Positions 1-18,177 are shown, numbered from the stretch's first letter. The stretch: 64,000 bases of DNA from Escherichia phage AV115 (OR352945.1); one strand, 5' to 3'. The notes: generated from the letters alone by a model not told the origin. Made by a program: numbers and translations.

Positions 1-70
1 AACGAAAGGCCACCGGGCAAAATTACTTAATGCACATGACGGCCACTTAAAATTGCTTCTTATTTCTAAT

Positions 71-289
71 TCAGACATCTTTAACACTTATAATTTCAAT
101 ATCAGCCCAATGACCGTATCCAGGTATACGGTCTTCGATAGATAAATTTCCGTCATTTTTAGGCATTTTAATTGACGTAACGTATGGTTCTAGACGGTTT
201 TCTGCATAATACGGAAAAACGTCTGTTACACGATAAGTAACTTCGATCATTTCTGTACCCAACAATTTCTGAATTAATTTCTTTAACAT
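71..289 (-). CDS. hypothetical small early protein (72 aa)
   Basis: ORF in minus-strand early block; no recognisable motif. Confidence 0.4.
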   Translation of the reverse strand: MLKKLIQKLLGTEMIEVTYRVTDVFPYYAENRLEPYVTSIKMPKNDGNLSIEDRIPGYGHWADIEIISVKDV

Positions 290-290
290 A

Positions 291-485
291 TTATCCTCGC
301 TTTAAACATTTGATTACAGACAGTTCACCACCCATGCGAACGTCTTCAGTTCCATCGACCCATAGGACGGTGTAGGCTTCTTTAATAGTAGCATTACCTA
401 ATTTAAAAGCAGGTAAAACCTTTGAAATCATACCAGGAATACCTATACCTTTTAACTGGACAGTTTGTGATAAGAATAGTTGCAT
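291..485 (-). CDS. hypothetical protein (64 aa)
   Basis: ORF packed head-to-tail with neighbours. Confidence 0.35.
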   Translation of the reverse strand: MQLFLSQTVQLKGIGIPGMISKVLPAFKLGNATIKEAYTVLWVDGTEDVRMGGELSVIKCLKRG

Positions 486-772
486 TAGAACCTCATCTGA
501 AATCCGTGTGATTTAACATTACCGCCATAAATGTCAGAGGTATTGACTTCACGTGCGGCGCTAGGGTCGATGTTAATATCATGGTTGAGCTTAGTGATTG
601 CTAAGGTGTCACGACCGTTAACAGTACGGAATTCTACCGGGCACACATCATCAGCATAAGCCTTAATGGATTCATGAGTAGGTTGTTTGTCGACAGGAAC
701 GTCTTTACCTGCTTTAGAGAAAACAACTTCACAGAAATTTTTACGGGTATCAAAATAAGTGGTCATAAACAT
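485..772 (-). CDS. hypothetical protein (95 aa)
   Basis: ATG at 770-772 preceded by GAGGAAAA RBS. Confidence 0.5.
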   Translation of the reverse strand: MFMTTYFDTRKNFCEVVFSKAGKDVPVDKQPTHESIKAYADDVCPVEFRTVNGRDTLAITKLNHDINIDPSAAREVNTSDIYGGNVKSHGFQMRF

Positions 773-787
773 AATATTTTCCTCAAA

Positions 788-810
788 GGAGGCCGAAGCC
801 TCCTTTTTTA
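788..810. terminator. intergenic hairpin GGAGGC-CGAA-GCCTCC plus T-tract (possibly bidirectional)
   Basis: Perfect 6-bp stem, tetraloop, TTTTTT on plus side. Confidence 0.4.
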
Positions 811-813
811 AGA

Positions 814-1179
814 TTAGATATCGAATTCGTTAAGAACTACATCAAAGATTGCTTCGAGATGTTCAGGTTTAGCTCGGTTACTCAGGATATGACGAATCCA
901 AGTTTTAACCAGAAGTTTACGATTAACACCGTTCCAGCAAGGATGAGTACCTAAATCACGTTGACGGAAATCATCATCTAATGCAATTTTGAAGTTGGAA
1001 CCTTCCATCATGATTGAAACAGTAATGCCATTTTCAAATCGCATATAAACGTAATTAGGAGTCATATACTGCTCAATTTCACATACTGAACCATTTTTAT
1101 GCTTCCACAAGCAAACCATGTCGATAGAACCAGCGATACCGTTAGAAACATATTTACGTTCGAAGTTGATGTAGTTCAT
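814..1179 (-). CDS. hypothetical protein (121 aa)
   Basis: ORF downstream of early promoter at 1215-1250. Confidence 0.5.
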   Translation of the reverse strand: MNYINFERKYVSNGIAGSIDMVCLWKHKNGSVCEIEQYMTPNYVYMRFENGITVSIMMEGSNFKIALDDDFRQRDLGTHPCWNGVNRKLLVKTWIRHILSNRAKPEHLEAIFDVVLNEFDI

Positions 1180-1214
1180 TTTATTCTCCGGTTGTTTTAT
1201 TGATTAGGTGGTAC

Positions 1215-1250
1215 AAGTCTATAGTAACACATCCTACAGGAGAGTAAACA
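1215..1250 (-). promoter_or_regulatory. T4-type early promoter
   Basis: Minus strand GTTTAC, 17 nt, TGnTACTAT. Confidence 0.5.
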
Positions 1251-1285
1251 TCTTTTTAAACTTTTTCTGCCCTAAACGCACAAAA

Positions 1286-1303
1286 GGGAGACCGAAGTCT
1301 CCC
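1286..1303 (-). terminator. intrinsic terminator hairpin GGGAGAC-UUCG-GUCUCCC
   Basis: 7-bp GC-rich stem with UUCG loop then UUUUG on minus transcript. Confidence 0.6.
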
Positions 1304-1308
1304 TAAAA

Positions 1309-1488
1309 TTATGCAACAACCTTTCCAAAACGAGAAGCATCATCTCGAAGAACTGCACGTGCTCTGCGCATGATCTTCTCAACGGTTTGATTAATACGAG
1401 AGTTCGACCCACGCTTGTATCCAGCGCGTTTAGAGGTACCATCAACTTTCTTTTCAACTGCTTTCTTTGCTTTAGCTTGTTTTGCCAT
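1309..1488 (-). CDS. small lysine-rich basic protein (59 aa, MAKQAKAKKAVEKK...)
   Basis: ATG-initiated frame followed by terminator hairpin at 1286-1303; preferred over overlapping track ORF 1272-1457, which starts at TTG in another frame. Confidence 0.45.
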   Translation of the reverse strand: MAKQAKAKKAVEKKVDGTSKRAGYKRGSNSRINQTVEKIMRRARAVLRDDASRFGKVVA

Positions 1489-1651
1489 TATAAATTCTCT
1501 TTAAATGAAAATGCAGGACTTATTGACATTGCCTGCTCAAGCCCTCAATGGGAACATAGGTTTTGGATATTTAACGACAGGATAACCATAAACCCGTCAT
1601 CATACCTACCATGACTTACACAGCTAACCTTTTGCTGACGCATGATAGCAA

Positions 1652-1900
1652 TTATTTCAAAGTAATAACAAAATGACGTACTGCTTTACGAGCTGCAGAA
1701 GCCAAAGGCTTAGCATATTTCAGTTCATCTTTTGCTTCCAGTTCAGAAGCCAAAGCTGCCTGGACCGGGTTCAGATGTTTGAAATAACGAAGGATTTCAA
1801 GAGCTTCGGCTTCAACATCAATAGATGCGCCATAGTTTTCATGACCATTATTCCATGCGTTTCGTTGCAGTTCAAGAGCGTGTTGTAATTGTTTAATCAT
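1652..1900 (-). CDS. rIII: lysis inhibition accessory protein rIII (82 aa)
   Basis: Length and sequence match recalled T4 rIII; sits next to gene 31. Confidence 0.75.
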   Translation of the reverse strand: MIKQLQHALELQRNAWNNGHENYGASIDVEAEALEILRYFKHLNPVQAALASELEAKDELKYAKPLASAARKAVRHFVITLK

Positions 1901-2024
1901 TTTAAATTCTCAATTCGAGATAATATTTAGTAGCCACGTTCGTCTGAATTTCACCTTCTTTCGACAAGTCTCTCAGTTGTAGGCTACCGCTTAGAAGAGT
2001 GTTCTCTTCATATAGTTATTTATA

Positions 2025-2357
2025 TCACTTATAAAGACACGGAATAGCTTTATAGTGGCATGTTACGAATTTCTGTTTAATTTCTTTAGGTTGTTTAAGT
2101 CCCAAAGCCACAAATGGATGTGGAACATTTCGAATTTGTCCAACTGGTAGTGGAGTCAAATCACCGACTTCAACAAAACCTTCAGGAACATCAGGACCTA
2201 CAGAATGAACTACACATAGTTCAGGAACTTCACCTTGAACACGTTTACCAATCACAAGTCCTGATTCGGTAACTTCTTCATCACCTGCTTGAGCGGGTTC
2301 AGAAACCAGAATGACATATTCACCAACAGCACGAATTGGGAGTTGTACTTCAGACAT
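2025..2357 (-). CDS. 31: co-chaperonin gp31 (GroES analogue for capsid folding)
   Basis: 110 aa, near-identical to recalled T4 gp31 (MSEVQ...[22 protein letters not shown]...). Confidence 0.9.
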
Positions 2358-2414
2358 CTTATTTCCTTGTTGTTTGACGATAGATTAATAATACCATACT
2401 ATTCGTAAAGCATA

Positions 2415-2723
2415 TTACATAAGAAGCAAACGTTCTACCGGAGTACCATCAACCGAAATTACTTTATCAAGGCGGAAAGAACGCCACTGACCTAACTCGG
2501 TATCGAATGCTCGAACTGATTCACGAGGTTCAGAACGAACTTCTGTTGATGGGTTACTATTTTCATATTTGACTTCAAGTTCGTCGCGGGAAGCAAACAT
2601 CGTACGAACATCACCGTTAGCCTTTTCAAATACAACACAATGAACGCCTACAGACAGAATAGTTTTAATACGTTCACGAAGAACCATAGTTTCTTGTTCA
2701 GTTAAAATCATATTATTCACCAC
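2415..2723 (-). CDS. hypothetical protein (102 aa)
   Basis: ORF between cd and gene 31. Confidence 0.45.
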   Translation of the reverse strand: MVNNMILTEQETMVLRERIKTILSVGVHCVVFEKANGDVRTMFASRDELEVKYENSNPSTEVRSEPRESVRAFDTELGQWRSFRLDKVISVDGTPVERLLLM

Positions 2724-3294
2724 AAAAGTTTCGAATTTGTTCCCAATTCAGAGAACGAAGATTATTACGAGAGTACTGAATTACTTCAATACCGGCTTTT
2801 TTTAGAATGTCTGCCCAATTTTCAGGAGATCGGTCATATAATTCTGCATATACAACCTTTTTAATACCTGACTGTGTAATAGCTTTAGTGCAATCAGGAC
2901 ATGGAGAAAGCGTCGTATACAACGTAGCACCTTCAATAGAATTACCTTTACGAGCTGCAAACAAAATTGCATTCAATTCCGCATGGATTTCGTTATTAGC
3001 AGACCATGCACTATGAGCGGCCCGATGTTCTTTAGCCAAAACAAAATTATCCACCCGTCCAAATGCTGTAGTGCCTTCTTTATGCCCAGCAACGATGACC
3101 GGGCTTGGTTTATTCTTCAACCAACCATTTTCGGATGCATGTTCGCAACAGTTTGTACCACCTGAAGGAGAGCCATTATAACCTGTAGAAATAATGCGTC
3201 CATCTTTTTCAATGACGGCGCCAACTTTCCATGAACAACATTTTGATTCTTGAGAAATCAGATAAGCAATCTGAAGATATGTGCTAGCTTTCAT
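2713..3294 (-). CDS. cd: dCMP deaminase
   Basis: 193 aa; cytidine/deoxycytidylate deaminase zinc motifs (CEHA...SPCPDC); T4 cd length. Confidence 0.9.
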   Translation of the reverse strand: MKASTYLQIAYLISQESKCCSWKVGAVIEKDGRIISTGYNGSPSGGTNCCEHASENGWLKNKPSPVIVAGHKEGTTAFGRVDNFVLAKEHRAAHSAWSANNEIHAELNAILFAARKGNSIEGATLYTTLSPCPDCTKAITQSGIKKVVYAELYDRSPENWADILKKAGIEVIQYSRNNLRSLNWEQIRNFCGE

Positions 3295-4286
3295 TATTGA
3301 ACCTTATTAATATAAGTTAACAGCTCTTTAGTTTGTTCCCAACTGATGCACGCATCGGTAATGGAAACGCCATAGGACATATTATCAGAAATTTTTTGAT
3401 TTCCTTCATGTAGGAATGATTCTATCATAATTCCTTTGACCAAATCATTAGCTGCTAAATTTTTACCAATACCAATTTGATTGCTATAATGCCCATCAGC
3501 GTTTGCATGGCTACAGTCAACCATTACATAATGATTCAGACCTACTGCCCTTGCTTTGTTAGAAGCTTCTTGAATATCAGAAGAATGATAGTTCGGGCCG
3601 TTGGTCCCGCCACGCAATACGATATGCGTATTCTGATTACCTTCAGCTTCAACAATGCCTACAGTACCATCGACGTCCATACCCATATACCGATGAGGCC
3701 AGGCGGCACTATACATCGCGTCTGTAGCTACTTTAATAGAACCATTGGTTGCGTTCTTGAAGCCTACGCACATCGGTAGACCTGAAGCAATTTCACGATG
3801 TGTCTGACTTTCAGTCGTACGGGCGCCAATAGCAACCCATGAGAAAATACCAGAAAGATACTTAATCGTGAATGGGTCTAATACTTCAGTTGCTAATGGA
3901 AGTCCCATACGTAGAAGTTTACGACACAATGTTCGTGCAACTATAAGACCGTGGTTCATATCAAAACTTCCGTCAAGATATGGATCATTTACAAGACCTT
4001 TCCAACCTACGGTAGTTCGAGGCTTTTCAAAATAAACGCGCATCACTAACAGAACATTAGGAAGACGAGTTTGAAGTTCAGCCAGACGTTTGCCGTATTC
4101 AACAGCAGCAATAGGGTCATGAATTGAACAAGGACCTACAACAATAAGTTTGCGTGGGTCTTCACCGTTCATAATCGAATTAACTTGTTCGCGATGAGAA
4201 GCCACTTGTGATGCGTAAGCTTCCGACAAAGGAATAATCTCAGCCAGTTCTTTTGGAGAAATAAGTTTTCCGACGACAGGTAACAT
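3294..4286 (-). CDS. 3-deoxy-7-phosphoheptulonate (DAHP) synthase, class I AroF/AroG/AroH-like
   Basis: 330 aa with blocks GPCSIHD, MRVYFEKPRTTVGWKGL, AIGARTTESQTHRE, VGFKN, DCSHAN, ITDACISWE that I recognise from E. coli DAHP synthases; ATG at 4284-4286 with TAAGGA RBS. Confidence 0.85.
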   Translation of the reverse strand: MLPVVGKLISPKELAEIIPLSEAYASQVASHREQVNSIMNGEDPRKLIVVGPCSIHDPIAAVEYGKRLAELQTRLPNVLLVMRVYFEKPRTTVGWKGLVNDPYLDGSFDMNHGLIVARTLCRKLLRMGLPLATEVLDPFTIKYLSGIFSWVAIGARTTESQTHREIASGLPMCVGFKNATNGSIKVATDAMYSAAWPHRYMGMDVDGTVGIVEAEGNQNTHIVLRGGTNGPNYHSSDIQEASNKARAVGLNHYVMVDCSHANADGHYSNQIGIGKNLAANDLVKGIMIESFLHEGNQKISDNMSYGVSITDACISWEQTKELLTYINKVQ

Positions 4287-4406
4287 AACAATCCTTAGGA
4301 GATATAAACAGATTCTGATTCAACAATACCTTTAACCGGATTAGACAGGCTAAGTTGGTAGTGCTCAGATTTATGACCATTCTCGATAGTAATGAGATAG
4401 CTCTCA

Positions 4407-4643
4407 TTATAGTGTTCCATATACTCGAGTTGCTTCAACAAGACCATCACTGCCTAATTTAAGATTAGTAATTTGGTCACCATCTTTAGGATTAACGATT
4501 ATGAGAAAAGAACGTGGAGATTCTTGAATAACTCGTAATGTTGCATCTTGGAAACGTTCAGACACTTTATTGATGAGTGCTTGAGCAAATTCTTTTACTT
4601 TAATCTGAAATTCGTGTACTGTAATTGGGTTTTCACTTAGCAT
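4407..4643 (-). CDS. hypothetical protein (78 aa)
   Basis: ORF only. Confidence 0.4.
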   Translation of the reverse strand: MLSENPITVHEFQIKVKEFAQALINKVSERFQDATLRVIQESPRSFLIIVNPKDGDQITNLKLGSDGLVEATRVYGTL

Positions 4644-4703
4644 TTCTATTTCCTCATTTGTTGGTAGAGTTATAGTATCACAACTCCACCATGTTGTAAA
4701 CCA

Positions 4704-4979
4704 TTAAATTGCTTTGCATTCAATTTTTTGTGTACCGAAATTGATATCACATTGGATAACTAAATCGCCGTCAAGATCAAATACCACTATGACGTGTGCA
4801 GACCCAGGGAGAAGAGTAATAGCAATAGAATCTACTTGGTCTGGGAGCAAAGCATTGAGTACATGAGTTAGTTGAGCATGAACTCTGAGTTCGGCTGCAA
4901 TATCAAGCACTTCAAACATATTATTAGCAATAATCTGACTGAAGACTACCTTTACAATTTCAGAATATTTAGGGAACAT
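4704..4979 (-). CDS. hypothetical protein (91 aa)
   Basis: ORF only. Confidence 0.4.
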   Translation of the reverse strand: MFPKYSEIVKVVFSQIIANNMFEVLDIAAELRVHAQLTHVLNALLPDQVDSIAITLLPGSAHVIVVFDLDGDLVIQCDINFGTQKIECKAI

Positions 4980-4986
4980 AATTACC

Positions 4987-5211
4987 TCAGTGCACAGTAT
5001 TTACTTTAACTCGAACAACAAATCGCTCGGTTGGTTCACCGACGGGAACAAACTCTACATGATATTCACCTTTGTAACGAGTATTCAGATCATTACGAAT
5101 TCCTGCGAGTTTGTTGATTAATGTAGGACTCATATTAAGTCCCACTAGTTTACGAAGCATTTTGTATGCTTCATCTTCGATTTCATGATGTTTATCGTAC
5201 ATAGTTTTCAT
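4987..5211 (-). CDS. hypothetical protein (74 aa)
   Basis: ORF only. Confidence 0.4.
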   Translation of the reverse strand: MKTMYDKHHEIEDEAYKMLRKLVGLNMSPTLINKLAGIRNDLNTRYKGEYHVEFVPVGEPTERFVVRVKVNTVH

Positions 5212-5382
5212 TTAACCATTCAATTGCCTGGTCGACGTTATCAAATATACCGCCGTCCAAACGTTCTTCACGCTCATAGTCCATCACATCAATACCGAAC
5301 TGTCCATTTACTAAAGGCCAGGCTACAAACAAATATTCTTTATGATGTTCGATGGCCTCAATCACTTCATATAATCGTTTCA

Positions 5383-5383
<1 letters not shown>
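5192..5383 (-). CDS. hypothetical protein (63 aa)
   Basis: ORF abutting pseT. Confidence 0.4.
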
Positions 5384-6469
<1,086 letters not shown>

Positions 6470-6470
<1 letters not shown>

Positions 6471-6769
6471 TATTTTATTCCTAAGAAAGTTTCAAGAATA
6501 CGAATGTTATGCTCGCGCCGGTCTTTATTAATTTCAGCAACGTTTTTATTGATTGACGTACTTCTAACGTTTGAAGAAATAAATTTAATCATATGACTTT
6601 TGAGTTGTTGCAAATCCAACCCTTTTTCTTTAGCAGCTTTACGAAGAGCTTTACCTGCTTCATCTAGTGCCTTTGCTGCATCTTTGTCATAATCGACAAG
6701 TGACATTCCACGGCAGATATCAATATACTCATCAGACCGTTTGATGTAATTCTCTAGTAATGTTTTCAT
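6470..6769 (-). CDS. hypothetical protein (99 aa)
   Basis: ORF downstream of early promoter at 6795-6828. Confidence 0.45.
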
Positions 6770-6794
6770 TTAGATTTCCTCAATTATCCATAGG

Positions 6795-6828
6795 AGCATT
6801 ATACTCTGCTCCCGAGAGTTTGTAAACT
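6795..6828 (-). promoter_or_regulatory. T4-type early promoter
   Basis: Minus strand GTTTAC, 18 nt, TATAAT. Confidence 0.55.
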
Positions 6829-7051
6829 ATTTTACTAAAGATTCAATATACTCATGAAGAGCTTTAGTAGCTACTGCCCACTTATTCTGATATTCATTTT
6901 TCAGATTAGCACGAGACTGAACTAACAAGCGGTCATTAGTCGGAGGCAAAGATTCTAATCGTTGAATCTGGCGCCCATAAATCATAGCCGCCATTTCAGA
7001 TTCATAGATAAGCCCTTTAATGTATTCATGCTGTTCTTTAGTCATTGGCAT
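6827..7051 (-). CDS. hypothetical protein (74 aa)
   Basis: ORF only. Confidence 0.4.
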   Translation of the reverse strand: MPMTKEQHEYIKGLIYESEMAAMIYGRQIQRLESLPPTNDRLLVQSRANLKNEYQNKWAVATKALHEYIESLVK

Positions 7052-7332
7052 TTTTCCTCTTTTAAACCACTACGATAATAACATAACATAGTCTTCTGGT
7101 CATGTACATATCTTTTTATGTCGTTTAACCAGATACGAAATTCTTGAGAGTCTTCAAATGGCATTCCAACCCATGGATTACCATCAATAACCTTTACTTG
7201 CCATTTCTGGTTATATTCAGCAATAGATTCAGGCCATGGCGGATGTAAAGTTTCTTTAGGGCTTAAGGGCACATCCTGGGCACATCCAGCCAAAATGCCA
7301 ATAGATAATACAACTGCGGTTAATTTAATCAT
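7042..7332 (-). CDS. putative lipoprotein (96 aa)
   Basis: N-terminal signal with lipobox-like LAGC (MIKLTAVVLSIGILAGCAQ). Confidence 0.5.
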   Translation of the reverse strand: MIKLTAVVLSIGILAGCAQDVPLSPKETLHPPWPESIAEYNQKWQVKVIDGNPWVGMPFEDSQEFRIWLNDIKRYVHDQKTMLCYYRSGLKEEKCQ

Positions 7333-7685
7333 TCTGAGAGCTTCCTGAGGTCTTCTGCAAAGGAATCGAAGGACCTGTTGATTTGTTTTTCGACCAATCC
7401 TGGCTTACTTGCCACCACGTTCTTCTTCTTCGAATCCTGACGGAGCTTTTCATTTTCGGCCTTAAGTTGGTCAACTAAAACACGGTTCTTATAAGTCATT
7501 TCTTCGATTGACTGATATTGAACCTTGAAGTCGTCTAATACTTTAGCATTGTTTTTAGCGGTCTCTTTGACAGAAGCTAATTCAGTATTCAACGAATCAA
7601 CTTTGTTGTTTAAGACCACTATTGTTACCGTAGAAACTAGAGCAAAAGCTGCTACTATAGCATAAATCGGATTTACTTTAAGCAT
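7329..7685 (-). CDS. hypothetical membrane-anchored coiled-coil protein (118 aa)
   Basis: N-terminal hydrophobic segment then charged helical region. Confidence 0.45.
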   Translation of the reverse strand: MLKVNPIYAIVAAFALVSTVTIVVLNNKVDSLNTELASVKETAKNNAKVLDDFKVQYQSIEEMTYKNRVLVDQLKAENEKLRQDSKKKNVVASKPGLVEKQINRSFDSFAEDLRKLSE

Positions 7686-8173
7686 GTTTTAATAATCTCA
7701 ATGATTTCATCTCGGGATAAACCATTAATAAGAACGGTTTTCAAACCATCACACTGGACTTTGTATGATTCAAACAATACACACAACTCTTCTGCTGTAT
7801 GATATGGACTTGAAATTCCAAGGCGGTTGAATTTGTCGGTAAGAGGGTCGCAAATGATGTAGAATTTTATACCTGCGATATGTACGTTTGGTTGACTAAT
7901 ATTAATGAACACATTAGCGTCGTATTTAGTCAAATTGTTTTGAAGAAATTCTACCATGGCATTAACTGCTTCCGGCATCGCTTCGCGTTTCTCTTCAGCG
8001 TATCGGGTGGAATACTCTTTTTGTTTTACTTTCTTTTTAAGATTTTTGGCCAGTGTAACACGTAGGTCAGTAAGATAACCAACTGGACGTCCTTTCTTAA
8101 AGACCCGGATTCCGTCAGTTGTATCTCCAAAAGCGGTTACGACCATATCGTTAGTAATCAATTGCATATTCAT
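7673..8173 (-). CDS. hypothetical protein (166 aa); positional candidate for alc
   Basis: Start moved to ATG 8171-8173 with GAGGAG RBS and early promoter at 8200-8234; identity to alc not verified. Confidence 0.45.
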   Translation of the reverse strand: MNMQLITNDMVVTAFGDTTDGIRVFKKGRPVGYLTDLRVTLAKNLKKKVKQKEYSTRYAEEKREAMPEAVNAMVEFLQNNLTKYDANVFINISQPNVHIAGIKFYIICDPLTDKFNRLGISSPYHTAEELCVLFESYKVQCDGLKTVLINGLSRDEIIEIIKTCLK

Positions 8174-8199
8174 AATTTTCTCCTCTGGTTGTTGATAAA

Positions 8200-8234
8200 A
8201 GCCATAGTAACACCTTCCTTGGTGTTTGTAAACC
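8200..8234 (-). promoter_or_regulatory. T4-type early promoter
   Basis: Minus strand GTTTAC, 17-18 nt, TACTAT. Confidence 0.5.
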
Positions 8235-8235
8235 A

Positions 8236-9369
<1,134 letters not shown>

Positions 9370-9384
9370 TCAGTTAGTTTTTTT

Positions 9385-9417
9385 AAATTGTACCACAATC
9401 CTTGTGGTGTGTAAACT
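9385..9417 (-). promoter_or_regulatory. T4-type early promoter upstream of gene 63
   Basis: Minus strand GTTTAC, 18 nt, TACAAT. Confidence 0.5.
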
Positions 9418-9826
9418 ACTTTTTCTTATGTTGGATATTCCAAGGCGGGTTGAACTTTTTGATAAAAAGTGGTTCTTCAAGGTCCATTGTTGCGATGGTC
9501 ATTGAACCAAGTTCGTTGGTGACTGAAAGGTCAAAACATTGGCGGGCCCAGAATTCAACCTTTTTGCCTTGCATTAAGGCATCCAAAATCATAAGTGATT
9601 TTCTTGAATCTGAAGTCTGGTCTTTTCGATTTATGGCTGTTCGATAATAGTTAATGCGTTTCTTTAAATTCTTGGTTTTACCAATATACACAAGTTCGTC
9701 ATCTATAGCAATAGCATATATAACATTTTTCTTATTAGGGGCATCAATGGTTTTAATTGTTGCATCTTCTAATAGCTCCAATTCTATATATTTAATAAAG
9801 GAATATTCGGCGGCAATATCTTTCAT
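9416..9826 (-). CDS. denA: endonuclease II (GIY-YIG family)
   Basis: 136 aa with GIY-YIG-like VYIGKTKNLKKRINYY; position between gene 63 and nrdB. Confidence 0.85.
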   Translation of the reverse strand: MKDIAAEYSFIKYIELELLEDATIKTIDAPNKKNVIYAIAIDDELVYIGKTKNLKKRINYYRTAINRKDQTSDSRKSLMILDALMQGKKVEFWARQCFDLSVTNELGSMTIATMDLEEPLFIKKFNPPWNIQHKKK

Positions 9827-9834
9827 AATAAAGT

Positions 9835-9848
9835 GGGACCGAAGTCCC
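9835..9848 (-). terminator. intergenic UUCG hairpin between nrdB and denA
   Basis: GGGAC-UUCG-GUCCC on minus transcript; weak U-tract, may be stability element. Confidence 0.35.
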
Positions 9849-9852
9849 GTCC

Positions 9853-10355
9853 TTAGAAATATTTTTTGTATGAATTGATTACATTTTGGTCTACATCATT
9901 ATCAATTTGTGCGACAAGATAAGAACTGATTTCAACTTCCTGAGGAGCTGCTTGAACTAAATCAGAGTTCAGATATTCACGAATCCAAGGATAAGGATGT
10001 TTGGTCGGAGCATCAGTAATTGGACACGGCAAACCACACTGTTTCATACGAGACACAGTCAAGTAATCAACAAAAGCACACATACTCTGTGTATTGATAC
10101 CTGGACATGTACCGTCTTTAAAGAGGTGTGCAGCCCATTCCTTCTCTTGACTATTTACTTCCATAAAAATGTCAACTGCTTCTTGTTCACATTCTTTAGC
10201 AATTTGAACCCACTCATCACCATCAGTACCGGATTGAAGTTGACGGATAATGTACTGAGTACCCTTGAGATGGAGTTGTTCGTCACGAGCAATGAACTTC
10301 ATAATCTTTGCATTGCCTTCCATAATTTCCATATTCTTATGGAAATTAAATGTAC
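9853..10355 (-). CDS. nrdB: ribonucleotide reductase small subunit NrdB, exon 2
   Basis: C-terminal R2 sequence (FNFHKNMEIMEGNAK...); joins exon 1 to give conserved Cys codon TGT. Confidence 0.85.
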
Positions 10356-10947
10356 CGTTATGTTCGATTGAGCTCGCTAATTCTCAACCCGTTCTCTTAT
10401 GAACTGCTGCATATTACTATGCAGACCAGACTATATCACAATCCCGGAGGGATTCTCCCCATTTCGAGTCGCTTGACCCTACGTCCGAAGACTAGTCGTT
10501 GAACCTTGCTTTGCAATTGTCGCCGTGCCATCGTTTATATGTCGATGGTGATAAATCTTTCTTTTCACAATATGGACAATTCAATTGAATTCTATTTGGA
10601 TTTAATTTGCATCTGTCATTATGTTTTAGATAAAACCCAGGACCTTTACCAATGTGACCGCAGAAATCACATGTGATTTCTTTTTGTGCAGGATGGGTTC
10701 CGTTCTTAACCATTTCTAATGTTTTTGCTGATGTTCTTCCATCAGAATCTTTAGGTATAGGCCCGTTAGCATCCATCCAAATTTTTCTATAATTCAATTG
10801 TGCATCCTCTTAAAAGTATAATCATATTTATTTTATAATATACTAATTAAAGGTGCAAGCAAAACCTTGGCTGCTAGTTTTCCTATAAAGGACTTTCCAG
10901 CAATTAAAGGAGTTTTCGATAAACGTTACCGTTTAAAGGCGCATTTT
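10356..10947 (-). mobile_element. group I intron in nrdB (about 592 nt; boundaries approximate)
   Basis: Interrupts conserved R2 sequence; 3-prime end GAACATAACG and core blocks shared with td intron. Confidence 0.8.
10492..10797 (-). CDS. intron-encoded HNH/zinc-finger endonuclease remnant (I-TevIII-like, 101 aa)
   Basis: ORF inside nrdB intron with CxxC...H...C and CxxC...HGDNC motifs; short, so probably truncated. Confidence 0.6.
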   Translation of the reverse strand: MNYRKIWMDANGPIPKDSDGRTSAKTLEMVKNGTHPAQKEITCDFCGHIGKGPGFYLKHNDRCKLNPNRIQLNCPYCEKKDLSPSTYKRWHGDNCKARFND

Positions 10948-11623
10948 ACGCAAAAGATACATAAAAACGAATAGCTTCCAATGCATTGATGACATGCAAA
11001 CAAAGATAAAGAGATTTCATTAGGTCTCGTTTAGCTTCGGTCTCTTGTTTAATAGCTCGGTTTAAACGAAGGTCGGCATCAGGAGATTCTTTAGCTTGTT
11101 CTACAAATTCTTTAGCATTTTCCCAATTACGAGTCTTGACTAGAACATCATCATAATATTTACCTATTGATTCAGCTCGTTTCATGATTGCTTCGTCTAA
11201 TACAATCTCATCAAATACTTTGGATGGATCGGTATAAAGATTTCGCATAATATGAGTATACGAACGAGAGTGAATAGTTTCACTGAATGTCCATGTTGCA
11301 ACCCACGTATCTAATGAAGGGTCGGAAAGCAGTGCCATAAGTACCGCAGATGGGGCCCTGCCTTGGATAGAATCTAATAATGATTGATACTTAAGGTTGT
11401 TTGTAAAGATGTCCTGTTGGAACTGAGGAAGCTTATTGAACTGGGCCGAATCCAGCATCAGGTTTACTTCTTCTGGTCGCCAGAAAAACGACAATTGCTT
11501 TTCAATAAGTTCTTCAAAAACTTTATGTCGCTGAATATCATAACGTGCGAGGCCAAGACCAGAACCAAAGAACATTGGTTCATTCAAAACATCGACTTGT
11601 TGTGTGTTAAAAACTGTACTCAT
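10948..11623 (-). CDS. nrdB: ribonucleotide reductase small subunit NrdB, exon 1
   Basis: N-terminal R2 sequence ending ...RFYVSFA then in-frame stop at exon/intron junction. Confidence 0.85.
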
Positions 11624-11678
11624 TATATTTTCTCACTTAGTTATTAACTCATCCATGAGTAAATTATAATCAAAAGTC

Positions 11679-13943
11679 TTAAAGCTTACAAGCAGAACAA
11701 TCTTCAGCTTTAGGTGTTTCTAATTCATAGTCATCTGTACCTGACCCATCACGAGTGTTATGATAGTAGAGGTTTTTTCCGCCAAAGTACCAGAAGTAAA
11801 GCAGATCGTCAAGCATTACTGACATTGGCACTTTACCTTTCTCAAATACTGCAGGGTCATAGTAAGTATTAGCAGAAGCAGATTGGCACACCCATTTCAA
11901 CATGATAGCAACTTGGGTCAAATAAGGTTTATTACCTTTCTTAGCAAGTTTCCACGCGTAGTCGTAAAGACTCATGTTATGTTCTATATTAGGAACAACC
12001 TGTCGGAAGTTGCCTTCTTTAGATTCTTTAATACTTACAGGTCCACGAGGTGGTTCTATACCATTTGTGCTATTTGAGACTTGACTGCTTGACTCACAAG
12101 GCATGAGTGCAGACAACGTTGAGTTACGAATTCCATGTTCTTTGAGTTCAGCTCGAAGTTCTTCCCAGTCACAGACATAGTTCGGGGCTGCGATTTGGTC
12201 AATCTTTTTATTGTACCAGTCGATAGGTAATTCGCCTCTAGACCATTTAGTGTCTGAATAATACTCACAAGGTCCTTTTTCTTTGGCGAGTTTGATTGAT
12301 GCTTTGATAAGGCCATATTGCAATCTCTCGAACAATTCATGGGTCAAATCGTTAGCGTCTTCATATGAAGCAAAGTTAGAAGCTAACCATGCAGCATAGT
12401 TCGTCACACCAACACCGAGATTTCGACGCTTTTTAGCTTTTAAAGCTTCTGGAACCGGATAATCTTGATAGTCTAACAGGTTATCAAGTGCACGTACTTG
12501 TACTTCAGCAAGTTCATTAATTTTATCTTGGTCTTGCCAATCAAATTTATCTAATACAAAAGCAGATAATGTGCATAAACCAATTTCAGCATCAGGACCA
12601 TTCACATCATTAGTTGGAATAGCGATTTCACAACATAAGTTACTCTGACGAATTGGAGCTTTTTCACGAATAAACGGAGTGTAGTTATTCGTGTTATCAA
12701 CAAACTGTGGATAAATTCGAGCAGTGCCAGAACGTTCAGTCATGAACAATTCAAAGAGTTCTAGTGCTTTGATTCTTTTCTTTCTGATTGTTGGGTCTTT
12801 TTCAGCTTTCTCATAAAGCTCACGGAATTTATCTTGATCTTCAAAGAACGAGTAGTATAGTTCACCTGACATTTCGTGAGGGCTAAATAAAGTAATATAA
12901 TCATTTTTACCAAGGCGTTCCATCATAAGGTCATTAATCTGAATTCCGTAGTCCATATGTCGAATACGGTTTTCATCCACGCCTTTGTTATTTTTCAGAA
13001 CTAATAGGTTCTCTACTTCTAAGTGCCACATCGGATAATACGCTGTAGCAGCACCACCACGAATACCACCTTGAGAACAAGATTTTACTGCAGTTTGGAA
13101 ATGTTTCCAGAATGGAATAACACCTGTATGTCGAACTTCACCCGTACCGATCTTAGAACCTTCTGCACGAAGCATACCAACGTTGATACCGATACCAGCT
13201 CGTTTAGAAATATATTCAATAATTGATGCTGAAGTTTTGTTAATAGATTTTAACGAATCACCTGCTTCAATAACTACACAACTAGAGAACTGGCGAGTTG
13301 GAGTACGAGCACCTGCCATAATTGGGGTTGGCAATGAAACTTGATGAGTAGAAACGGCATCATAAAAACGAATAATATGTTTCAAACGGTCATGAGTTTC
13401 GTCTTGGTGTAAGGCCATGCCAATAGCCATGATAGCAAACTGGGGAGTTTCATAAATCTTCCCAGTTGTTTTATCTTTAACTAGATATTTTTCTTTAAGC
13501 TGCATAGCACCAGCATAAGTCAGGTCAAAGTCTCGTTCATGTTTAATCTGTGAATCGAGATAAATGATTTCTTCTGCTGAATATTGAGACAACAGCTCAG
13601 GGTCATATTTGCCTTCATTAACACAGTAAGAAATATGGTCTATAAAAGCAGGCGGTTCAAACTGCCCATATACATCTTTACGAAGTGCAAACATTAGCCC
13701 TTTGGCGGCGACATACTGATAATCAGGTTCTTCGACAGAAATCAAGTTAGCTGCAACTTTAATACAAATCTTCTGAATATCTTTGGTGCTCATCCCGTCG
13801 ACAAGATGGGTCTTAATTTCTTCATACAATTCGTATGGGTCGATTTGTGTTCCTTCACACTGCCAAGTTAATACTTGAATAATTTTCTGTGCATCAAAAT
13901 TTTGGGATACACCTGAATTTTTCACTACTTTAAAATTATACAT
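11679..13943 (-). CDS. nrdA: ribonucleotide reductase large subunit NrdA
   Basis: 754 aa; class Ia R1 features; T4 length and synteny. Confidence 0.95.
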   Translation of the reverse strand: MYNFKVVKNSGVSQNFDAQKIIQVLTWQCEGTQIDPYELYEEIKTHLVDGMSTKDIQKICIKVAANLISVEEPDYQYVAAKGLMFALRKDVYGQFEPPAFIDHISYCVNEGKYDPELLSQYSAEEIIYLDSQIKHERDFDLTYAGAMQLKEKYLVKDKTTGKIYETPQFAIMAIGMALHQDETHDRLKHIIRFYDAVSTHQVSLPTPIMAGARTPTRQFSSCVVIEAGDSLKSINKTSASIIEYISKRAGIGINVGMLRAEGSKIGTGEVRHTGVIPFWKHFQTAVKSCSQGGIRGGAATAYYPMWHLEVENLLVLKNNKGVDENRIRHMDYGIQINDLMMERLGKNDYITLFSPHEMSGELYYSFFEDQDKFRELYEKAEKDPTIRKKRIKALELFELFMTERSGTARIYPQFVDNTNNYTPFIREKAPIRQSNLCCEIAIPTNDVNGPDAEIGLCTLSAFVLDKFDWQDQDKINELAEVQVRALDNLLDYQDYPVPEALKAKKRRNLGVGVTNYAAWLASNFASYEDANDLTHELFERLQYGLIKASIKLAKEKGPCEYYSDTKWSRGELPIDWYNKKIDQIAAPNYVCDWEELRAELKEHGIRNSTLSALMPCESSSQVSNSTNGIEPPRGPVSIKESKEGNFRQVVPNIEHNMSLYDYAWKLAKKGNKPYLTQVAIMLKWVCQSASANTYYDPAVFEKGKVPMSVMLDDLLYFWYFGGKNLYYHNTRDGSGTDDYELETPKAEDCSACKL

Positions 13944-14583
13944 AATAATTCCATGTTGGATAATTTGATGATTTTAGACGGCGTCTAACCGTTTGGGTGC
14001 TCATAGATAAAATTATTGACGCTTCATTTAATGTATCATATATTACGTCGTTTATAATTACTTTCTTTGCAAATGGATTCTTAGCTCCTATCATAGCGTT
14101 AGAAATAGCTTGCTTAGTTGATTCTTTTAATGGGACTCCTTTAGAAATTTTTGTTTTAATTTTTATATTGTATTGTCCGCGTTTTTTACCTAATAAAGAA
14201 TTTCGTATCTTTTCTTTAGTCTCTTCAGATTTAACATGTCCTAGTTTGGAACGAGATATTTTATCTTTTGTTTTTTGGTCTAATTTTCGCCCTTTAAGCA
14301 AATCAACCATTTTTGCTCTAGCCCATCCAAATTCTTTATTATTTCTAGAACTCATTAAATTAACCGCGGTTGCTAAACCTAAATTGTTCGGATATATTTT
14401 TAATAAAAGAAGATGAGCCAAATAATGTTCTGAATATGTTAATTTAACTAGATTGTATGACTCATTGGTGCCACCTAAACATTTTGGGATTATATGATGC
14501 CATTCACCATCGATATCTTCAAAATTTCTTTCTTTATTTACTAAGTTTTTATATATTTTTAAATAATCCATAGTATAATCCAC
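13936..14583 (-). CDS. free-standing HNH homing endonuclease (215 aa)
   Basis: HHIIPKCLGGTNESYNLVKLTYSEHYLAH motif; 3-prime end overlaps nrdA start by 8 nt. Confidence 0.75.
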   Translation of the reverse strand: MDYTMDYLKIYKNLVNKERNFEDIDGEWHHIIPKCLGGTNESYNLVKLTYSEHYLAHLLLLKIYPNNLGLATAVNLMSSRNNKEFGWARAKMVDLLKGRKLDQKTKDKISRSKLGHVKSEETKEKIRNSLLGKKRGQYNIKIKTKISKGVPLKESTKQAISNAMIGAKNPFAKKVIINDVIYDTLNEASIILSMSTQTVRRRLKSSNYPTWNYYV

Positions 14584-14646
14584 TTTGTAGTATCAACGGG
14601 ATAGTATTTATCCCGTTAATTTATTATACACTTTTAAACTGAAGCG

Positions 14647-14901
14647 TTAATTATCCTCAGCAATAATTTCTTCGTATTCTTTAGGTGTCAAGACCGTGAT
14701 ATTGAAATAAACCAACGGTTCTTTTTCCACACCGTAACCACCACAGAATTCACGATATTCATAAATTCGTTCATGTGAATAACAAATGAATCGTTCACCT
14801 TTAACTATGATTTCACTATTCGGTGAAGGGATATCTAGTTCGGTAGGATTTTTCATTTCAAAAATTGTGGTGCCATATGAATTAATAAAACGTAAAATCA
14901 T
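14647..14901 (-). CDS. hypothetical protein (84 aa)
   Basis: ORF between td exon 2 and the HNH gene. Confidence 0.45.
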   Translation of the reverse strand: MILRFINSYGTTIFEMKNPTELDIPSPNSEIIVKGERFICYSHERIYEYREFCGGYGVEKEPLVYFNITVLTPKEYEEIIAEDN

Positions 14902-14902
14902 T

Positions 14903-15214
14903 TTATACCGCCATTTTAGCTTTGATAGCTGGATGTGATTCGTAATTTTTAAGAACGAAATCAGAATGTGTCATCGTTCCGGTAACCCAGTCCATTTGGA
15001 TTTTTGTAGGCCAATTCTCAAAATTACTAGGCCAATTAATTTCAAGAGAACATAACTCTTTAGGTTCATGACGAAGAACTTCTTTGCATTGTTCTACATG
15101 ATTGCTGTAGATATGCGTGTTGCCGCCTGAGAACACTAAATCACCTGGGATAAGGTTACACATCTTCGCTACAATATGTGTCAAGGCAGCGTACGAGGCG
15201 ATGTTGAACGGTAG
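14903..15214 (-). CDS. td: thymidylate synthase, exon 2
   Basis: Begins LPFNIASYA..., matching recalled T4 td after the intron. Confidence 0.9.
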   Translation of the reverse strand, partial: LPFNIASYAALTHIVAKMCNLIPGDLVFSGGNTHIYSNHVEQCKEVLRHEPKELCSLEINWPSNFENWPTKIQMDWVTGTMTHSDFVLKNYESHPAIKAKMAV

Positions 15215-16230
15215 CATTATGTTCAGATAAGGTCGTTAATCTTATCCCGGAATTATATCCAGCTGCATGTCACCATGCAGAGCAGACTATATCTCCAACT
15301 TGTTAAAGCAAGTTGTCTATCGTTTCGAGTCACTTGACCCTACTCCCTAAAGGGATAGTCGTTAGGCATTTATGTAGAACCAATTCCACTTATCAGATTT
15401 TACACGGTAAGTAACTAATCCTGATGAAATTTCAAAATGTCTAGCCGCATCGGCTGCACATTCAAAAATAATCCCATCGCATGAAATCTTTTTGATGTTA
15501 GCTGGCTTTTTGCCTTTCATCTTTTCAGATAGTTTAGTTTTAGTTTTTTCTGAATGTTTGTGATTAAAGAACGGGTTATTTTCACCTGAACGTTTTCGGC
15601 ACTTTCCACAAGTATCGGCCGAAGATGGTATGCGAACACCGCATTTACAAAACTTGTGGTTTTCTGGATTCCATCGGCCATTTTTACTTCCGTGTTTACC
15701 ATAAAGAGCTTTCCGACCATCAGGACCAAGCTTAAGCATCTTAGCTTTAACAGTTTCAGCTCGTTTCTTAGCAATTTCTTCTTTTAATGGATGATTTGAA
15801 AGCACATCGCCAAAAGACGCATCAGCAATATTATATCCATTAATTTTAGAATTTAGCTCTTTAATCCAAAAATTTTCTCGTTCAATAATCAAATCTTTCT
15901 CATATGGAATTTCTTCCAGTATAGAGCATTCAAAAACATTACCATGTTTATTAAAAGACCTTTGAAATTTTATAGAAGAGTGAACACCGTTTTCAAGGTC
16001 TTTAAAATGTCTCTTCCATCTTTTCTCAAAATCTTTAGCACTTCCAACATACACTTTACCGTTTAAAGTGTTTTTAATCTGATAAATTCCGCTTTTCATA
16101 AACACCTCTTTTTATATAGAAGTATTTATTAAAGGGTAGTCCTACAATTTAGCACGGGATTGTCTACTAGAGAGGTCCCCCGTTTAGATAGATTACAAGT
16201 ATAAGTCACCTTATACCTAGGCCTAAATTA
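15215..16230 (-). mobile_element. group I intron in td (1016 nt)
   Basis: 5-prime end TAATTTAGGCCTAGGTATAAGGTGACTTATAC and 3-prime end GAACATAATG on the minus strand; length equals recalled T4 td intron. Confidence 0.9.
15362..16099 (-). CDS. GIY-YIG homing endonuclease I-TevI
   Basis: 245 aa from ATG 16097-16099; MKSGIYQIKNTLNGKVYVGSAKDFEKRWKRH closely matches recalled I-TevI. Confidence 0.9.
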   Translation of the reverse strand: MKSGIYQIKNTLNGKVYVGSAKDFEKRWKRHFKDLENGVHSSIKFQRSFNKHGNVFECSILEEIPYEKDLIIERENFWIKELNSKINGYNIADASFGDVLSNHPLKEEIAKKRAETVKAKMLKLGPDGRKALYGKHGSKNGRWNPENHKFCKCGVRIPSSADTCGKCRKRSGENNPFFNHKHSEKTKTKLSEKMKGKKPANIKKISCDGIIFECAADAARHFEISSGLVTYRVKSDKWNWFYINA

Positions 16231-16779
16231 ACCTAAGAAAACATCTACACTGCGTTGATACCATTGTAAATCAAGATGACCATTACGCACATTGAACTGA
16301 TAGAACATATGGCAAGGAGGAAGAGCCATTTGATTTATTTCAGCCGGATTCCAGGCAGAAACAATTTGACGACGATCAGTTGGTAATTTTTTAATACGGT
16401 CGATTGTTTCAACTAATTGGTCTACACCACCAAAATCACGCCATTGCTTACCATAAATAGGACCAAGTTCGCCGCTATGATATCCAAGGTCTTTTGCCTG
16501 ATTTTCATAGTTGTCGTCCCAAATAGTTTTACCTTGAATAAGACTACCATGAGTACGAATACGCAAATCATTAACATTGGTAGAACCAGACATGAACCAC
16601 AGTAACTCGGCAATACAAGCTTTCCATGCTAATTTCTTAGTTGTTACTGCAGGAAATCCTTTAGTAAGGTCCCAACGTAATTTAGTTCCGAACAGGGCAA
16701 TAGTGCCGGTACCTGTACGGTCGTCTGTTTCGTAGCCATTTTCTAAGATATCTTTAATCAGGTATTGGTATTGTTTCAT
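16231..16779 (-). CDS. td: thymidylate synthase, exon 1
   Basis: Ends ...SVDVFLG; in-frame TAA is the first three intron nucleotides. Confidence 0.9.
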
Positions 16780-17363
16780 TTATATACGCTCTCAGTAATT
16801 TCGGTGAGTTCATCGATTCTGTAGTAATGAGATTCTACCATAGAACGTTGAAGCATAATATCTTGGACGAAATCTTTATCAAGTTGAACATCGGAATTAA
16901 CACGACATTTCTTAATGATTTTAGTCATCACGATTTCATCGGCATAAGGCAGTGCTTGTTTTAATAGAGCAGGGCCACCAATAATAGATACATCAACATG
17001 TTCAGTAGAAAGTTTAAACGGTACGTCAGTTGCAGGGCTAAACAGGTTAATTTCACCACCCGTTACCAAGGTAATAAATTCTGCTTGGGTGATATAGAAC
17101 CGTGCAAGTTCGTTGGTTTTGGTCCTAGGCAGTTTTCTGGCCATATCAGTGACAACCACATGAGTACGATCCTGGAGTAGACGAGGTAATGATGCAAAAG
17201 TCTTAGCACCCATAACCATTACAGTGTTTTTAGTGCGAGCAACAAAGTTACTCATATCTTGTTTGATATGCTTCCATGGAAGTCCATCACCTAATCCAAA
17301 AGCATATTCCAGTTTATCATCAACTGTTTTAGTCGGAGCGCATGCGAATACTAATTTAAGCAT
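16776..17363 (-). CDS. frd: dihydrofolate reductase
   Basis: 195 aa; matches recalled T4 Frd (GLGDGLPW...VIGGPALL...ALPYADE). Confidence 0.9.
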   Translation of the reverse strand: MLKLVFACAPTKTVDDKLEYAFGLGDGLPWKHIKQDMSNFVARTKNTVMVMGAKTFASLPRLLQDRTHVVVTDMARKLPRTKTNELARFYITQAEFITLVTGGEINLFSPATDVPFKLSTEHVDVSIIGGPALLKQALPYADEIVMTKIIKKCRVNSDVQLDKDFVQDIMLQRSMVESHYYRIDELTEITESVYK

Positions 17364-17366
17364 TTT

Positions 17367-17615
17367 TTATTTCCTCAGATTTTTCTTAACAACTTTCCAA
17401 TCAGCTTTAAACGATTCAACATCAGAGTGGTGAATCCAGAATCCTGCACTTTCACCATCTTCGTAGAGTGGACATCCATCGCATTCTTCGTTCCAACCCA
17501 TTTCACGTAAAGCTTCTTCAGCTTGTTCAAGGAGTTCAGCGTCTTTACCAACGATGTTGAAGTACCATTTACCTCTAACTTCAGAATCTTTGATGCTCTG
17601 GCGTTGCAATCTCAT
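17367..17615 (-). CDS. hypothetical protein (82 aa)
   Basis: Start moved to ATG 17613-17615 with AAGGAG RBS. Confidence 0.5.
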   Translation of the reverse strand: MRLQRQSIKDSEVRGKWYFNIVGKDAELLEQAEEALREMGWNEECDGCPLYEDGESAGFWIHHSDVESFKADWKVVKKNLRK

Positions 17616-17677
17616 TTTATTCTCCTTCACTTTTGATTTGATAGGGCTACTATAACATAACCCTATCTGATTATACA

Positions 17678-18070
17678 CTACTTTTTAAAAGTTTTTTGCA
17701 AAAGTTTGATGATTTCGTCGACGTTGGTTTCATCTACGATACAATGGATTTTTGTTACACCTAAAGTTATACCTTCGTTAGTAGGTTGAGGCTTTACTAA
17801 ATCTACTTCAATAAAGTATTTGAACTCGTCAGGATAAATCTCGAAATAAGTTTCAATTTCACCACCGGCAGAACATACAGTACCGTCTTCCATAGTTACA
17901 CTTACTACGTTTGACGTATCGCTATCATAATCAGGTTCCATTCCGTTTACAACAAAACTAGGCCCATGGAGTTCAATCAATTTTAACATCTTAGCGTTAT
18001 TGTGTGGTGCTTCTTGAACAAAGTCGTCTTTAAATAAAGGGTTAATGATATAAGATTTTCCGATTTCCAT
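17678..18070 (-). CDS. hypothetical protein (130 aa)
   Basis: ATG with GAGGAA RBS; early promoter at 18095-18129. Confidence 0.5.
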   Translation of the reverse strand: MEIGKSYIINPLFKDDFVQEAPHNNAKMLKLIELHGPSFVVNGMEPDYDSDTSNVVSVTMEDGTVCSAGGEIETYFEIYPDEFKYFIEVDLVKPQPTNEGITLGVTKIHCIVDETNVDEIIKLLQKTFKK

Positions 18071-18094
18071 TTTGATTTCCTCATGTTGTTGATA

Positions 18095-18129
18095 GGTCTA
18101 TACTAACACATCCAGGTAAGAAGTAAACA
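18095..18129 (-). promoter_or_regulatory. T4-type early promoter
   Basis: Minus strand GTTTAC, 17 nt, TAGTAT. Confidence 0.5.
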
Positions 18130-18159
18130 ACTTTTTCGGCAATTTACAGATACTCAAAA

Positions 18160-18177
18160 GGGAGACCGAAGTCTCCC
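18160..18177 (-). terminator. intrinsic terminator after gene 32
   Basis: GGGAGAC-UUCG-GUCUCCC then CUUUUG on minus transcript. Confidence 0.6.

Follow-up and report, generated by a model that had tools for sequence, protein, structure and literature searches.

The window, by which we mean the whole 64,000-nt stretch of DNA analyzed, shares 97.6% identity across its first 8 kb with Escherichia phage AV116 (OR352946.1), the closest complete relative, and its sequence identifies it as a Mosigvirus (Straboviridae), a T4-like phage. Genes run on the minus strand from 1 to 22100 and from 33293 to 64000 and on the plus strand from 22141 to 33292; the identities of the neighboring genes given below were taken from the annotation of AV116 and T4 and from tblastn searches against T4. 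Across the window, the 18-mer GGGAGACCGAAGTCTCCC is present exactly at 1286 to 1303, 18160 to 18177, and 27158 to 27175 (copies 1, 2, and 3), and a relative with two mismatches, AGGAGACCGAAGTCTCCT, lies at 62451 to 62468 (copy 4), all on the plus strand. These are the three exact copies and the near-copy listed in a preliminary description of this DNA, and all four were recovered in place; four matches compare with 0.01 expected, a count reached in 0 of 100 dinucleotide shuffles, which rules out a chance origin. Counted genome-wide in AV116 (167,816 bp), the 18-mer again has three exact copies, all inside the region that matches the window, and AV116 also carries the gene 41 copy.

The 18-mer is a 7-nt inverted repeat, GGGAGAC/GTCTCCC, flanking the loop CGAA, whose reverse complement is TTCG. 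It had been called an exact 18-nt palindrome, which holds for the arms, since these pair, but not for the asymmetric loop; because the loop is not palindromic, each copy has an orientation, with CGAA on the plus strand and UUCG on the minus strand. No plus-strand copy with a TTCG loop was found in the window at up to three mismatches, and the perfect-stem hairpins (at least 4 bp) on that strand of the window comprise 13 with CGAA and 2 with TTCG. Stems of the four copies are 7 to 9 bp long, with five G-C pairs and about −11 to −12 kcal/mol; the predicted fold energies of the UUCG and CGAA forms are −12.0 and −11.1 kcal/mol, respectively.

Placement of the hairpins

All four copies start 3 to 6 nt 3' of a stop codon, those of genes 30.9, 32, 35, and 41. 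Scanning with the early promoter pattern TTTAC[AT]-N16-18-TAnnAT locates a promoter that begins 5 to 36 nt past each of the minus-strand copies 1, 2, and 4, and each of these promoters has an SD and an ATG downstream.

Copy 1 (1286 to 1303, minus strand) reads GGGAGAC-UUCG-GUCUCCC and begins 5 nt after the stop codon of the gene 30.9 homolog (1309 to 1488), an open reading frame (ORF) with 96% identity to T4 30.9; its stem reaches 8 bp when extended to 1285 to 1304, and its tail is UUUUGUG. The early promoter after it, TTTACT-N16-TACTAT (1221 to 1248, minus strand), leads into the SD and ATG of the 30.7 homolog (814 to 1179). Copy 2 (18160 to 18177, minus strand) reads the same, GGGAGAC-UUCG-GUCUCCC, 6 nt after the stop codon of gene 32, which encodes the single-stranded DNA-binding protein (18184 to 19083); its tail is UUUUGAG, and the promoter that follows, TTTACT-N16-TAGTAT (18100 to 18127, minus strand), lies ahead of the frd.2 homolog (17678 to 18070). 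Copy 4, extended to 62449 to 62470 around its core at 62451 to 62468 (minus strand), forms AAAGGAGAC-UUCG-GUCUCCUUU 3 nt after the stop codon of the helicase gene 41 (62474 to 63916). Its U-tract is short, with UUU absorbed into the extended stem and CGGGG thereafter; 5 nt after the hairpin comes the early promoter TTTACA-N17-TATGAT (62415 to 62443, minus strand, with TG), downstream of which the ORF at 62011 to 62385 has no T4 homolog.

Copy 3 (27158 to 27175) belongs to the plus-strand genes and begins 5 nt after the stop codon of the late tail-fiber gene 35 (26025 to 27152). Its sense RNA reads C(CGAA)G, and it is followed on the plus strand (27176 to 27190) by ATTTTTG and then by TATAAATA (27183 to 27190), a T4 late promoter 24 nt ahead of the start of gene 36 (27215 to 27877).

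Hairpins of similar build recur elsewhere in the window. On the minus strand, AAAGGAGGC-UUCG-GCCUCCUUU (785 to 806) follows the 30.7 homolog, and GGGAC-UUCG-GUCCC (9835 to 9848) lies between the nrdB and denA homologs; on the plus strand, AGAGGGC-UUCG-GCCCUCU (31781 to 31798) stands directly 3' of a gene 37-like ORF (27886 to 31779). Further minus-strand examples are AGGGAGC-UUCG-GCUCCCU (36152 to 36169), which has the tail UUUGUGC and precedes the early promoter TTTACA-N16-TATTAT ahead of motA; GGGGAC-UUCG-GUCCCU (40021 to 40036), followed by UUUUUUU; AAGCUCC-UUCG-GGAGCUU (44624 to 44641); AAGGGC-UUCG-GCCCUU (47970 to 47985), followed by UUUGCUUU; and AAGGAAUCC-UUCG-GGAUUCCUU (56830 to 56851), followed by UUUUUUG and the early promoter TTTACA-N17-TAAGAT. 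A UUCG loop closed by C-G on the sense RNA is found in copies 1, 2, and 4 and in nine other hairpins of the window, but not in copy 3. The earlier remark that many related CGAA/UUCG hairpins are present thus stands, and they are strongly biased by strand: CUUCGG falls within a hairpin in 12 of its 15 sense-strand occurrences in the window versus 1 of its 13 antisense occurrences, the single antisense case being the copy at 27158. The same strand asymmetry of CUUCGG hairpins has been reported for T4 by the Gold laboratory in 2020 (PMC7165471).

Copy 1 in its extended form (1285 to 1304) and the hairpin ahead of motA (36152 to 36169) have in common AGGGAG(A)C-UUCG-G(U)CUCCCU together with UUUGUGC, and this likeness beyond the stem is possibly a trace of copying between cassettes. 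Two hairpins with other loops were also observed. One, AUAGCGGGC-AAGA-GCCCGCUAU (26112 to 26133, minus strand; 9 bp, of which 6 are G-C), lies antisense within the 5' part of gene 35 and was flagged as terminator-like by a simple scan; it could act as a block on antisense early transcription into the late tail-fiber genes. The other, a 10-bp hairpin AACGGGAUAG-UAU-UUAUCCCGUU without a UUCG loop (14595 to 14617), lies between a homing endonuclease ORF (13936 to 14583) and the ORF at 14647 to 14901.

Probable terminator-promoter cassettes in T4-like phages

Hairpins followed by a T-run are retained at the corresponding sites of other T4-like phages. Among IMG/VR T4-like contigs, the combination was present 3' of gene 30.9 in 26 of 26 sequences, 3' of gene 32 in 30 of 31, and between genes 35 and 36 in 23 of 23. 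The orthologous stems vary among lineages through compensating paired changes (the best hairpin per region was chosen, so that pairing at inner positions is partly by construction, whereas the presence of a hairpin with a T-run is not), and they are mostly followed by 5 to 7 T within the next 8 nt. Comparison with T4, which the preliminary description had put forward as a check, places hairpins at matching sites after genes 30.9 (AGGACUCC-UUCG-GGAGUCCU), 32 (GGGGACCC-UAGA-GGUCCCC), and 35 (GGGACCC-UUCG-GGUUCCC); after gene 41, the sites compared in T4 and many other relatives had no hairpin.

Several relatives already carry annotation to this effect. In GenBank record MK327933, exactly these 18 nt after gene 35, with the CGAA loop, are annotated as a putative terminator; the hairpin after gene 35 is marked as a terminator by ARNold in NC_055708 and KF562341, and OL960577 is annotated at this site with a rho-independent terminator and the TATAAATA late promoter. 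These annotations are predictions (ARNold, TransTermHP, and WebGeSTer). The tails of copies 1 (UUUUGUG), 2 (UUUUGAG), and 3 (AUUUUUG) are all acceptable for a terminator, and copy 4 has only UUU. A simple terminator scan, which is unspecific in that its counts in positions 1 to 20000 were no higher than in shuffles, picked copies 2 and 3 and missed copies 1 and 4. A scan against Rfam returned no family at gathering score anywhere in the window, and we therefore set aside the idea that the 18-mer is a known RNA family.

On these grounds, we consider it probable, at roughly 85%, that the 18-mer is the stem-loop of Rho-independent terminators or attenuators embedded in terminator-promoter cassettes. 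The preliminary description had read the minus-strand transcripts as carrying cUUCGg terminators or RNA-stability signals, and placement, U-runs, the sense-strand bias, conservation of the sites, and the annotation of relatives all agree with that reading, as far as sequence can speak to it. Terminator or RNA-end hairpins of this kind are a known class. The sense transcript would fold, 3 to 6 nt past the stop codon, into a G+C-rich hairpin of 7 to 9 bp that is closed by C-G and capped by a UUCG tetraloop; the U-run past the hairpin would bring about release of E. coli RNA polymerase, and the hairpin left on the released mRNA would serve as a 3'-end cap against 3' exonucleases. The UUCG tetraloop is very stable. 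We regard the hairpin as the probable upstream half of a compact cassette whose other half would be an early promoter of the form TTTACW-N16/17-TAnnAT at genes 30.9, 32, and 41, as in the PeSL type described below, and the late promoter TATAAATA at gene 35. The copies would then mark ends of transcription units in this phage, those of genes 30.9, 32, 35, and 41, with a new promoter past each. With its short U-tract, copy 4 may provide weak attenuation or be an RNA-end or insulator hairpin only. T4 early transcription reads through many sites of this kind.

The preliminary description also raised the possibility that the hairpins act as bidirectional terminators, stopping RNA polymerase arriving on either strand. 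The stem is identical on both strands, the simple scan found copies 2 and 3 terminator-like on both, and copy 4 has a better T-run on the plus strand (TTTTATTA) than on its sense strand. None of the copies, however, is flanked by convergent genes, and the antisense tails are poor for copy 1 (TAAAATTA), copy 2 (AATTTATT), and copy 3 on the minus strand (TAAATTTA). Directly past the stem, an uninterrupted canonical T-run is found on the sense side only in copies 1 to 3, the antisense side of copy 2 being merely T-rich. The A/T tracts that had been noted on both flanks hold only loosely: the T-run is confined to the sense side in copies 1 and 2, copy 3 does have some antisense T, and in copy 4 the antisense run is the better one, although no transcript is known to head toward it. 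The orientation of the loop, moreover, tracks the sense strand in 12 of 13 hairpins, which a symmetric function would not need, and the sole exception, copy 3, is a recent flip in a narrow clade (see below). A bidirectional role is, in our judgment, distinctly unlikely, and termination of sense transcripts remains the preferred reading.

Alternatively, the hairpins might act mainly after transcription, as 3'-end caps or processing barriers that determine how stable an mRNA is and let adjoining cistrons have different fates, with little termination. This is a possible, if doubtful, account. It draws on the stable cUUCGg cap, on U-tracts that are short or imperfect (4 U in copies 1 and 2 and 3 U in copy 4), and on the fresh promoter directly past every copy, owing to which downstream expression needs no read-through. 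In addition, GGAG motifs in the stems of intergenic terminators, often with UUCG loops, resist RegB (Durand et al. 2006), so that GGAG within such stems would be shielded. A purely posttranscriptional role is less easily squared with the 5 to 7 T within 8 nt of the orthologous hairpins, which speaks for termination and not for a simple cap, or with the strong termination produced by a PeSL stem-loop in a reporter. The two roles are also compatible, in that a terminator hairpin would also cap the RNA it releases, and we retain the terminator reading with this addition.

Nor does the 18-mer resemble an element that works as DNA, be it a protein-binding palindrome, a target of recombination or nucleases, or a mobile repeat akin to REP or MITE sequences. 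Identical copies are spread across 61 kb, PeSL cassettes have been proposed to mediate recombination and mini-circle formation, and all three minus-strand copies adjoin indels relative to T4, each of which could be taken in favor of such an element. The flanks of the copies, however, are unrelated beyond the promoter consensus. The exact 18-mer is also found, within differing flanks, in more than 120 unrelated viral contigs, where the UUCG orientation is nearly always followed by a T-run, and neither among these contigs nor among the copies in the window did we find a conserved unit beyond the stem, terminal repeats, or target-site duplications, which rules out a mobile or REP-like repeat. A DNA-binding palindrome would not be expected to retain pairing but not sequence at orthologous sites or to have a loop whose orientation follows the transcribed strand, and the use of cassettes as recombination substrates would be a by-product and not the primary function. 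A DNA-level role therefore appears very improbable. The earlier description as dispersed identical repeats is apt insofar as a single genome uses one stem in several cassettes, but not in the sense of a mobile repeat. Bacterial REP/BIME elements are likewise short, G+C-rich, intergenic inverted repeats situated after genes; the phage copies differ from them in sharing only the promoter consensus outside the stem, in forming no mosaic arrays, in having an orientation that follows transcription, and in preserving structure rather than sequence among orthologs.

Read as terminators, the copies match the PeSL cassettes of T4-like phages, in which a stem-loop is paired with an early promoter (Arbiol et al. 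2010, PMC2839356; Comeau et al. 2014, PMC4122927). In T4 and PST, the PeSL stem-loop lies just upstream of TTTACW-N17-TAYWAT and the stem consensus depends on the lineage; the cassettes adjoin insertions and deletions, and one phi1 PeSL stem-loop cut reporter expression about as much as rrnB T1 (PMC2839356; PMC4122927). Copies 1, 2, and 4 resemble them in combining a stem-loop with an early promoter, SD, and start codon, in being cassettes repeated within a genome under a lineage-specific stem consensus, and in adjoining differences in gene content: the phage lacks T4 gene 30.8 past copy 1 and T4 frd.3 past copy 2, and past copy 4 it has two extra ORFs for which T4 has no homolog (an apparent association with indels, seen at three sites). 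Those papers name only early and middle cassettes, whereas copy 3 carries the late promoter TATAAATA; further, two of the four copies stand after core genes (32 and 41) and not after ORFans.

C(UUCG)G tetraloop hairpins are reportedly a feature of T4 mRNAs, described, it is said, by Tuerk and colleagues in 1988. The hairpins of the window have the same G+C stem, C-G closure, and UUCG cap, the same intergenic position and sense-strand specificity, and stand at matching sites after genes 30.9, 35, 37, and elsewhere; they differ in that the stem sequence is not the same at any shared site and in that the sense RNA of copy 3 reads CGAA. The T4 gene 32 terminator, which Prentki and Krisch reportedly used in the omega interposon in 1984, has the arrangement of copy 2, in which the hairpin stands directly past the stop codon of gene 32 and is followed by a U-run and an early promoter, but it reads GGGGACCC-UAGA-GGUCCCC followed by UUUUUU where copy 2 reads GGGAGAC-UUCG-GUCUCCC followed by UUUU. 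For the terminators themselves, then, the window adds one further lineage to the cUUCGg terminator and PeSL picture of T4-like phages and little beyond annotation.

Two interrupted genes were observed on the minus strand. Between the halves of nrdB (9853 to 10332 and 10946 to 11623), positions 10407 to 10644 match the group I intron family RF00028 below threshold (35.9 bits versus a gathering score of 50; E = 1.9e-6), and this match overlaps a small HNH endonuclease-like ORF. The thymidylate synthase gene td is split as well (14903 to 15217 and 16228 to 16779), with a homing endonuclease ORF at 15362 to 16105 between the parts, an arrangement like that of I-TevI in the td intron of T4; at td (14903 to 16779), Rfam yielded no group I intron match even at E ≤ 0.1.

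Loop inversion after gene 35

The preliminary description had observed that the copy at 27158 reads CGAA after plus-strand gene 35, and this is what the sense RNA shows. Among the genomes compared, CGAA at the 35/36 site is confined to the window, AV116, AV114, and G2285. The sense strand reads TTCG at this site in phages p000v, ATK47, SA35RD, HX01, ESCO47, and PhAPEC2 and in the metagenomic IMG locus L127. Of these, p000v, ATK47, SA35RD, HX01, and L127 have GGGAGAC-TTCG-GTCTCCC within flanks matching those of the window except for one base in HX01; ESCO47 has the same 18-mer, TTCG on the sense strand, and more divergent flanks, and PhAPEC2 has a shorter stem, AAAGGAGAC-TTCG-GTCTCCTTT, with differing flanks. 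In more distant genera, too, the sense-strand loop at this site is UUCG or GNRA. Identity of at least 99% across the 35/36 stretch was found for 7 of 122 matching records.

Because Mosigviruses with nearly identical flanks read TTCG and the flip is confined to the clade with at least 99% identity, the CGAA of copy 3 is, judged from these alignments, the derived state rather than a designed property of the site, produced by a recent inversion of the 4-nt loop in this narrow clade. A sequencing artifact is unlikely, given that three independent GenBank genomes, originating from two countries, carry the flip in addition to the window. It may have arisen through a template switch during replication or through conversion from another copy of the 18-mer, two routes that would look alike here. 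Inversions limited to the loop, brought about by replication template switching, have been documented (Monttinen and Loytynoja 2022, PMC8794818); there too, the reverse complement takes the place of a 4-nt loop while stem and flanks are preserved, but those cases are in rRNA, whereas copy 3 lies in a phage terminator and could also owe its loop to conversion from another copy.

Stem, U-run, and promoter are not altered by the flip, whose predicted cost is about 0.9 kcal/mol. Since at least four genomes retain the flipped copy, the UUCG loop would not be essential at the 35/36 site. The UUCG and CGAA versions after gene 35, which have the same stem and flanks, make up a clean natural pair for gauging the share of the tetraloop in termination and stability.

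A further CGAA loop was seen after the gene 30.9 homolog of L267 (IMGVR_UViG_2706796116_000001), where the sense strand reads AGGGGCUCC-CGAA-GGAGCCCCU and the relative L262 has AGGGACUCC-UUCG. From sequence, this looks like a second, independent loop inversion.

Stem sharing among cassettes

The finding of the 18-mer in more than 120 viral stretches first hinted that it might be a universally optimal hairpin, an idea that we reject. In a sample of 116 IMG/VR sites of the form GGGNNN-CUUCGG-NNNCCC-TTT, 76 formed perfect hairpins, of which only 1 had the AGA middle of the 18-mer, compared with 12 that had GAG; because AGA is rare in the sample, the many matches to the 18-mer are explained by how numerous UUCG terminators are in the collection.

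Within single genomes, the same stem nevertheless recurs. Of the 22 UUCG/CGAA hairpins in AV116, 5 have the GGAGAC stem, namely those after genes 23, 30.9, 32, 35, and 41. Other genomes repeat other stems: in one of 175 kb, AUGGGAGAC...CCCAUUUUUGUAUCUG follows 30.9 as well as 32, another group has GGACC after genes 32, 35, and 41, and a third has AUGGGAACC with CUAGU-type loops after 30.9 and 32. The late sites behave similarly, the gp8/9 and gp35/36 cassettes of T4 both carrying CCCTTTTTCTT-TATAAATA-CTAT and the same two sites in Mosigvirus both carrying CTCCCATTTTTGTAT, from which it follows that paralogous cassettes are more alike than their orthologs. The sharing of stems within a genome thus looks real and lineage specific, and it would be explained most simply by copying or gene conversion among cassettes, a process also put forward for PeSLs, although the case for concerted evolution draws on a handful of genomes and no phylogeny, and the likeness of flanks is partly promoter consensus. 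We offer only tentatively the broader proposal that gene conversion keeps the stems of a genome alike, the late-promoter cassette included, and that the CGAA flip shows the tetraloop to be dispensable.

Genome-specific stem sharing, at late-promoter cassettes as well, offers a tractable case for the concerted evolution of regulatory cassettes. The late-promoter cassette, composed of the hairpin, a T-run, and TATAAATA, falls outside the published early and middle PeSL classes.

The stem was also encountered after the major capsid gene 23, where AV116, outside the region covered by the window (10351 to 10368 of AV116), has a fifth GGGAGAC stem with the loop UCCG (GGGAGAC-UCCG-GUCUCCC). The exact UUCG 18-mer follows gene 23 in several genera (L008, L023, L035, L062, and L084), and T4 has AGGGAACC-UUCG there.

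Finally, three IMG/VR T4-like contigs of 144 to 170 kb (L065, L083, and L155) contain a 33-nt module, GGGAGACTTCGGTCTCCC-ATTTTTG-TATAAATA, that is identical in sequence to the ancestral form of the gene 35/36 cassette and precedes a different late gene, whose protein starts with MAGQVANNPSELKDL... Its position ahead of a different late gene indicates that the module of terminator and late promoter recurs at other loci and in other genera.
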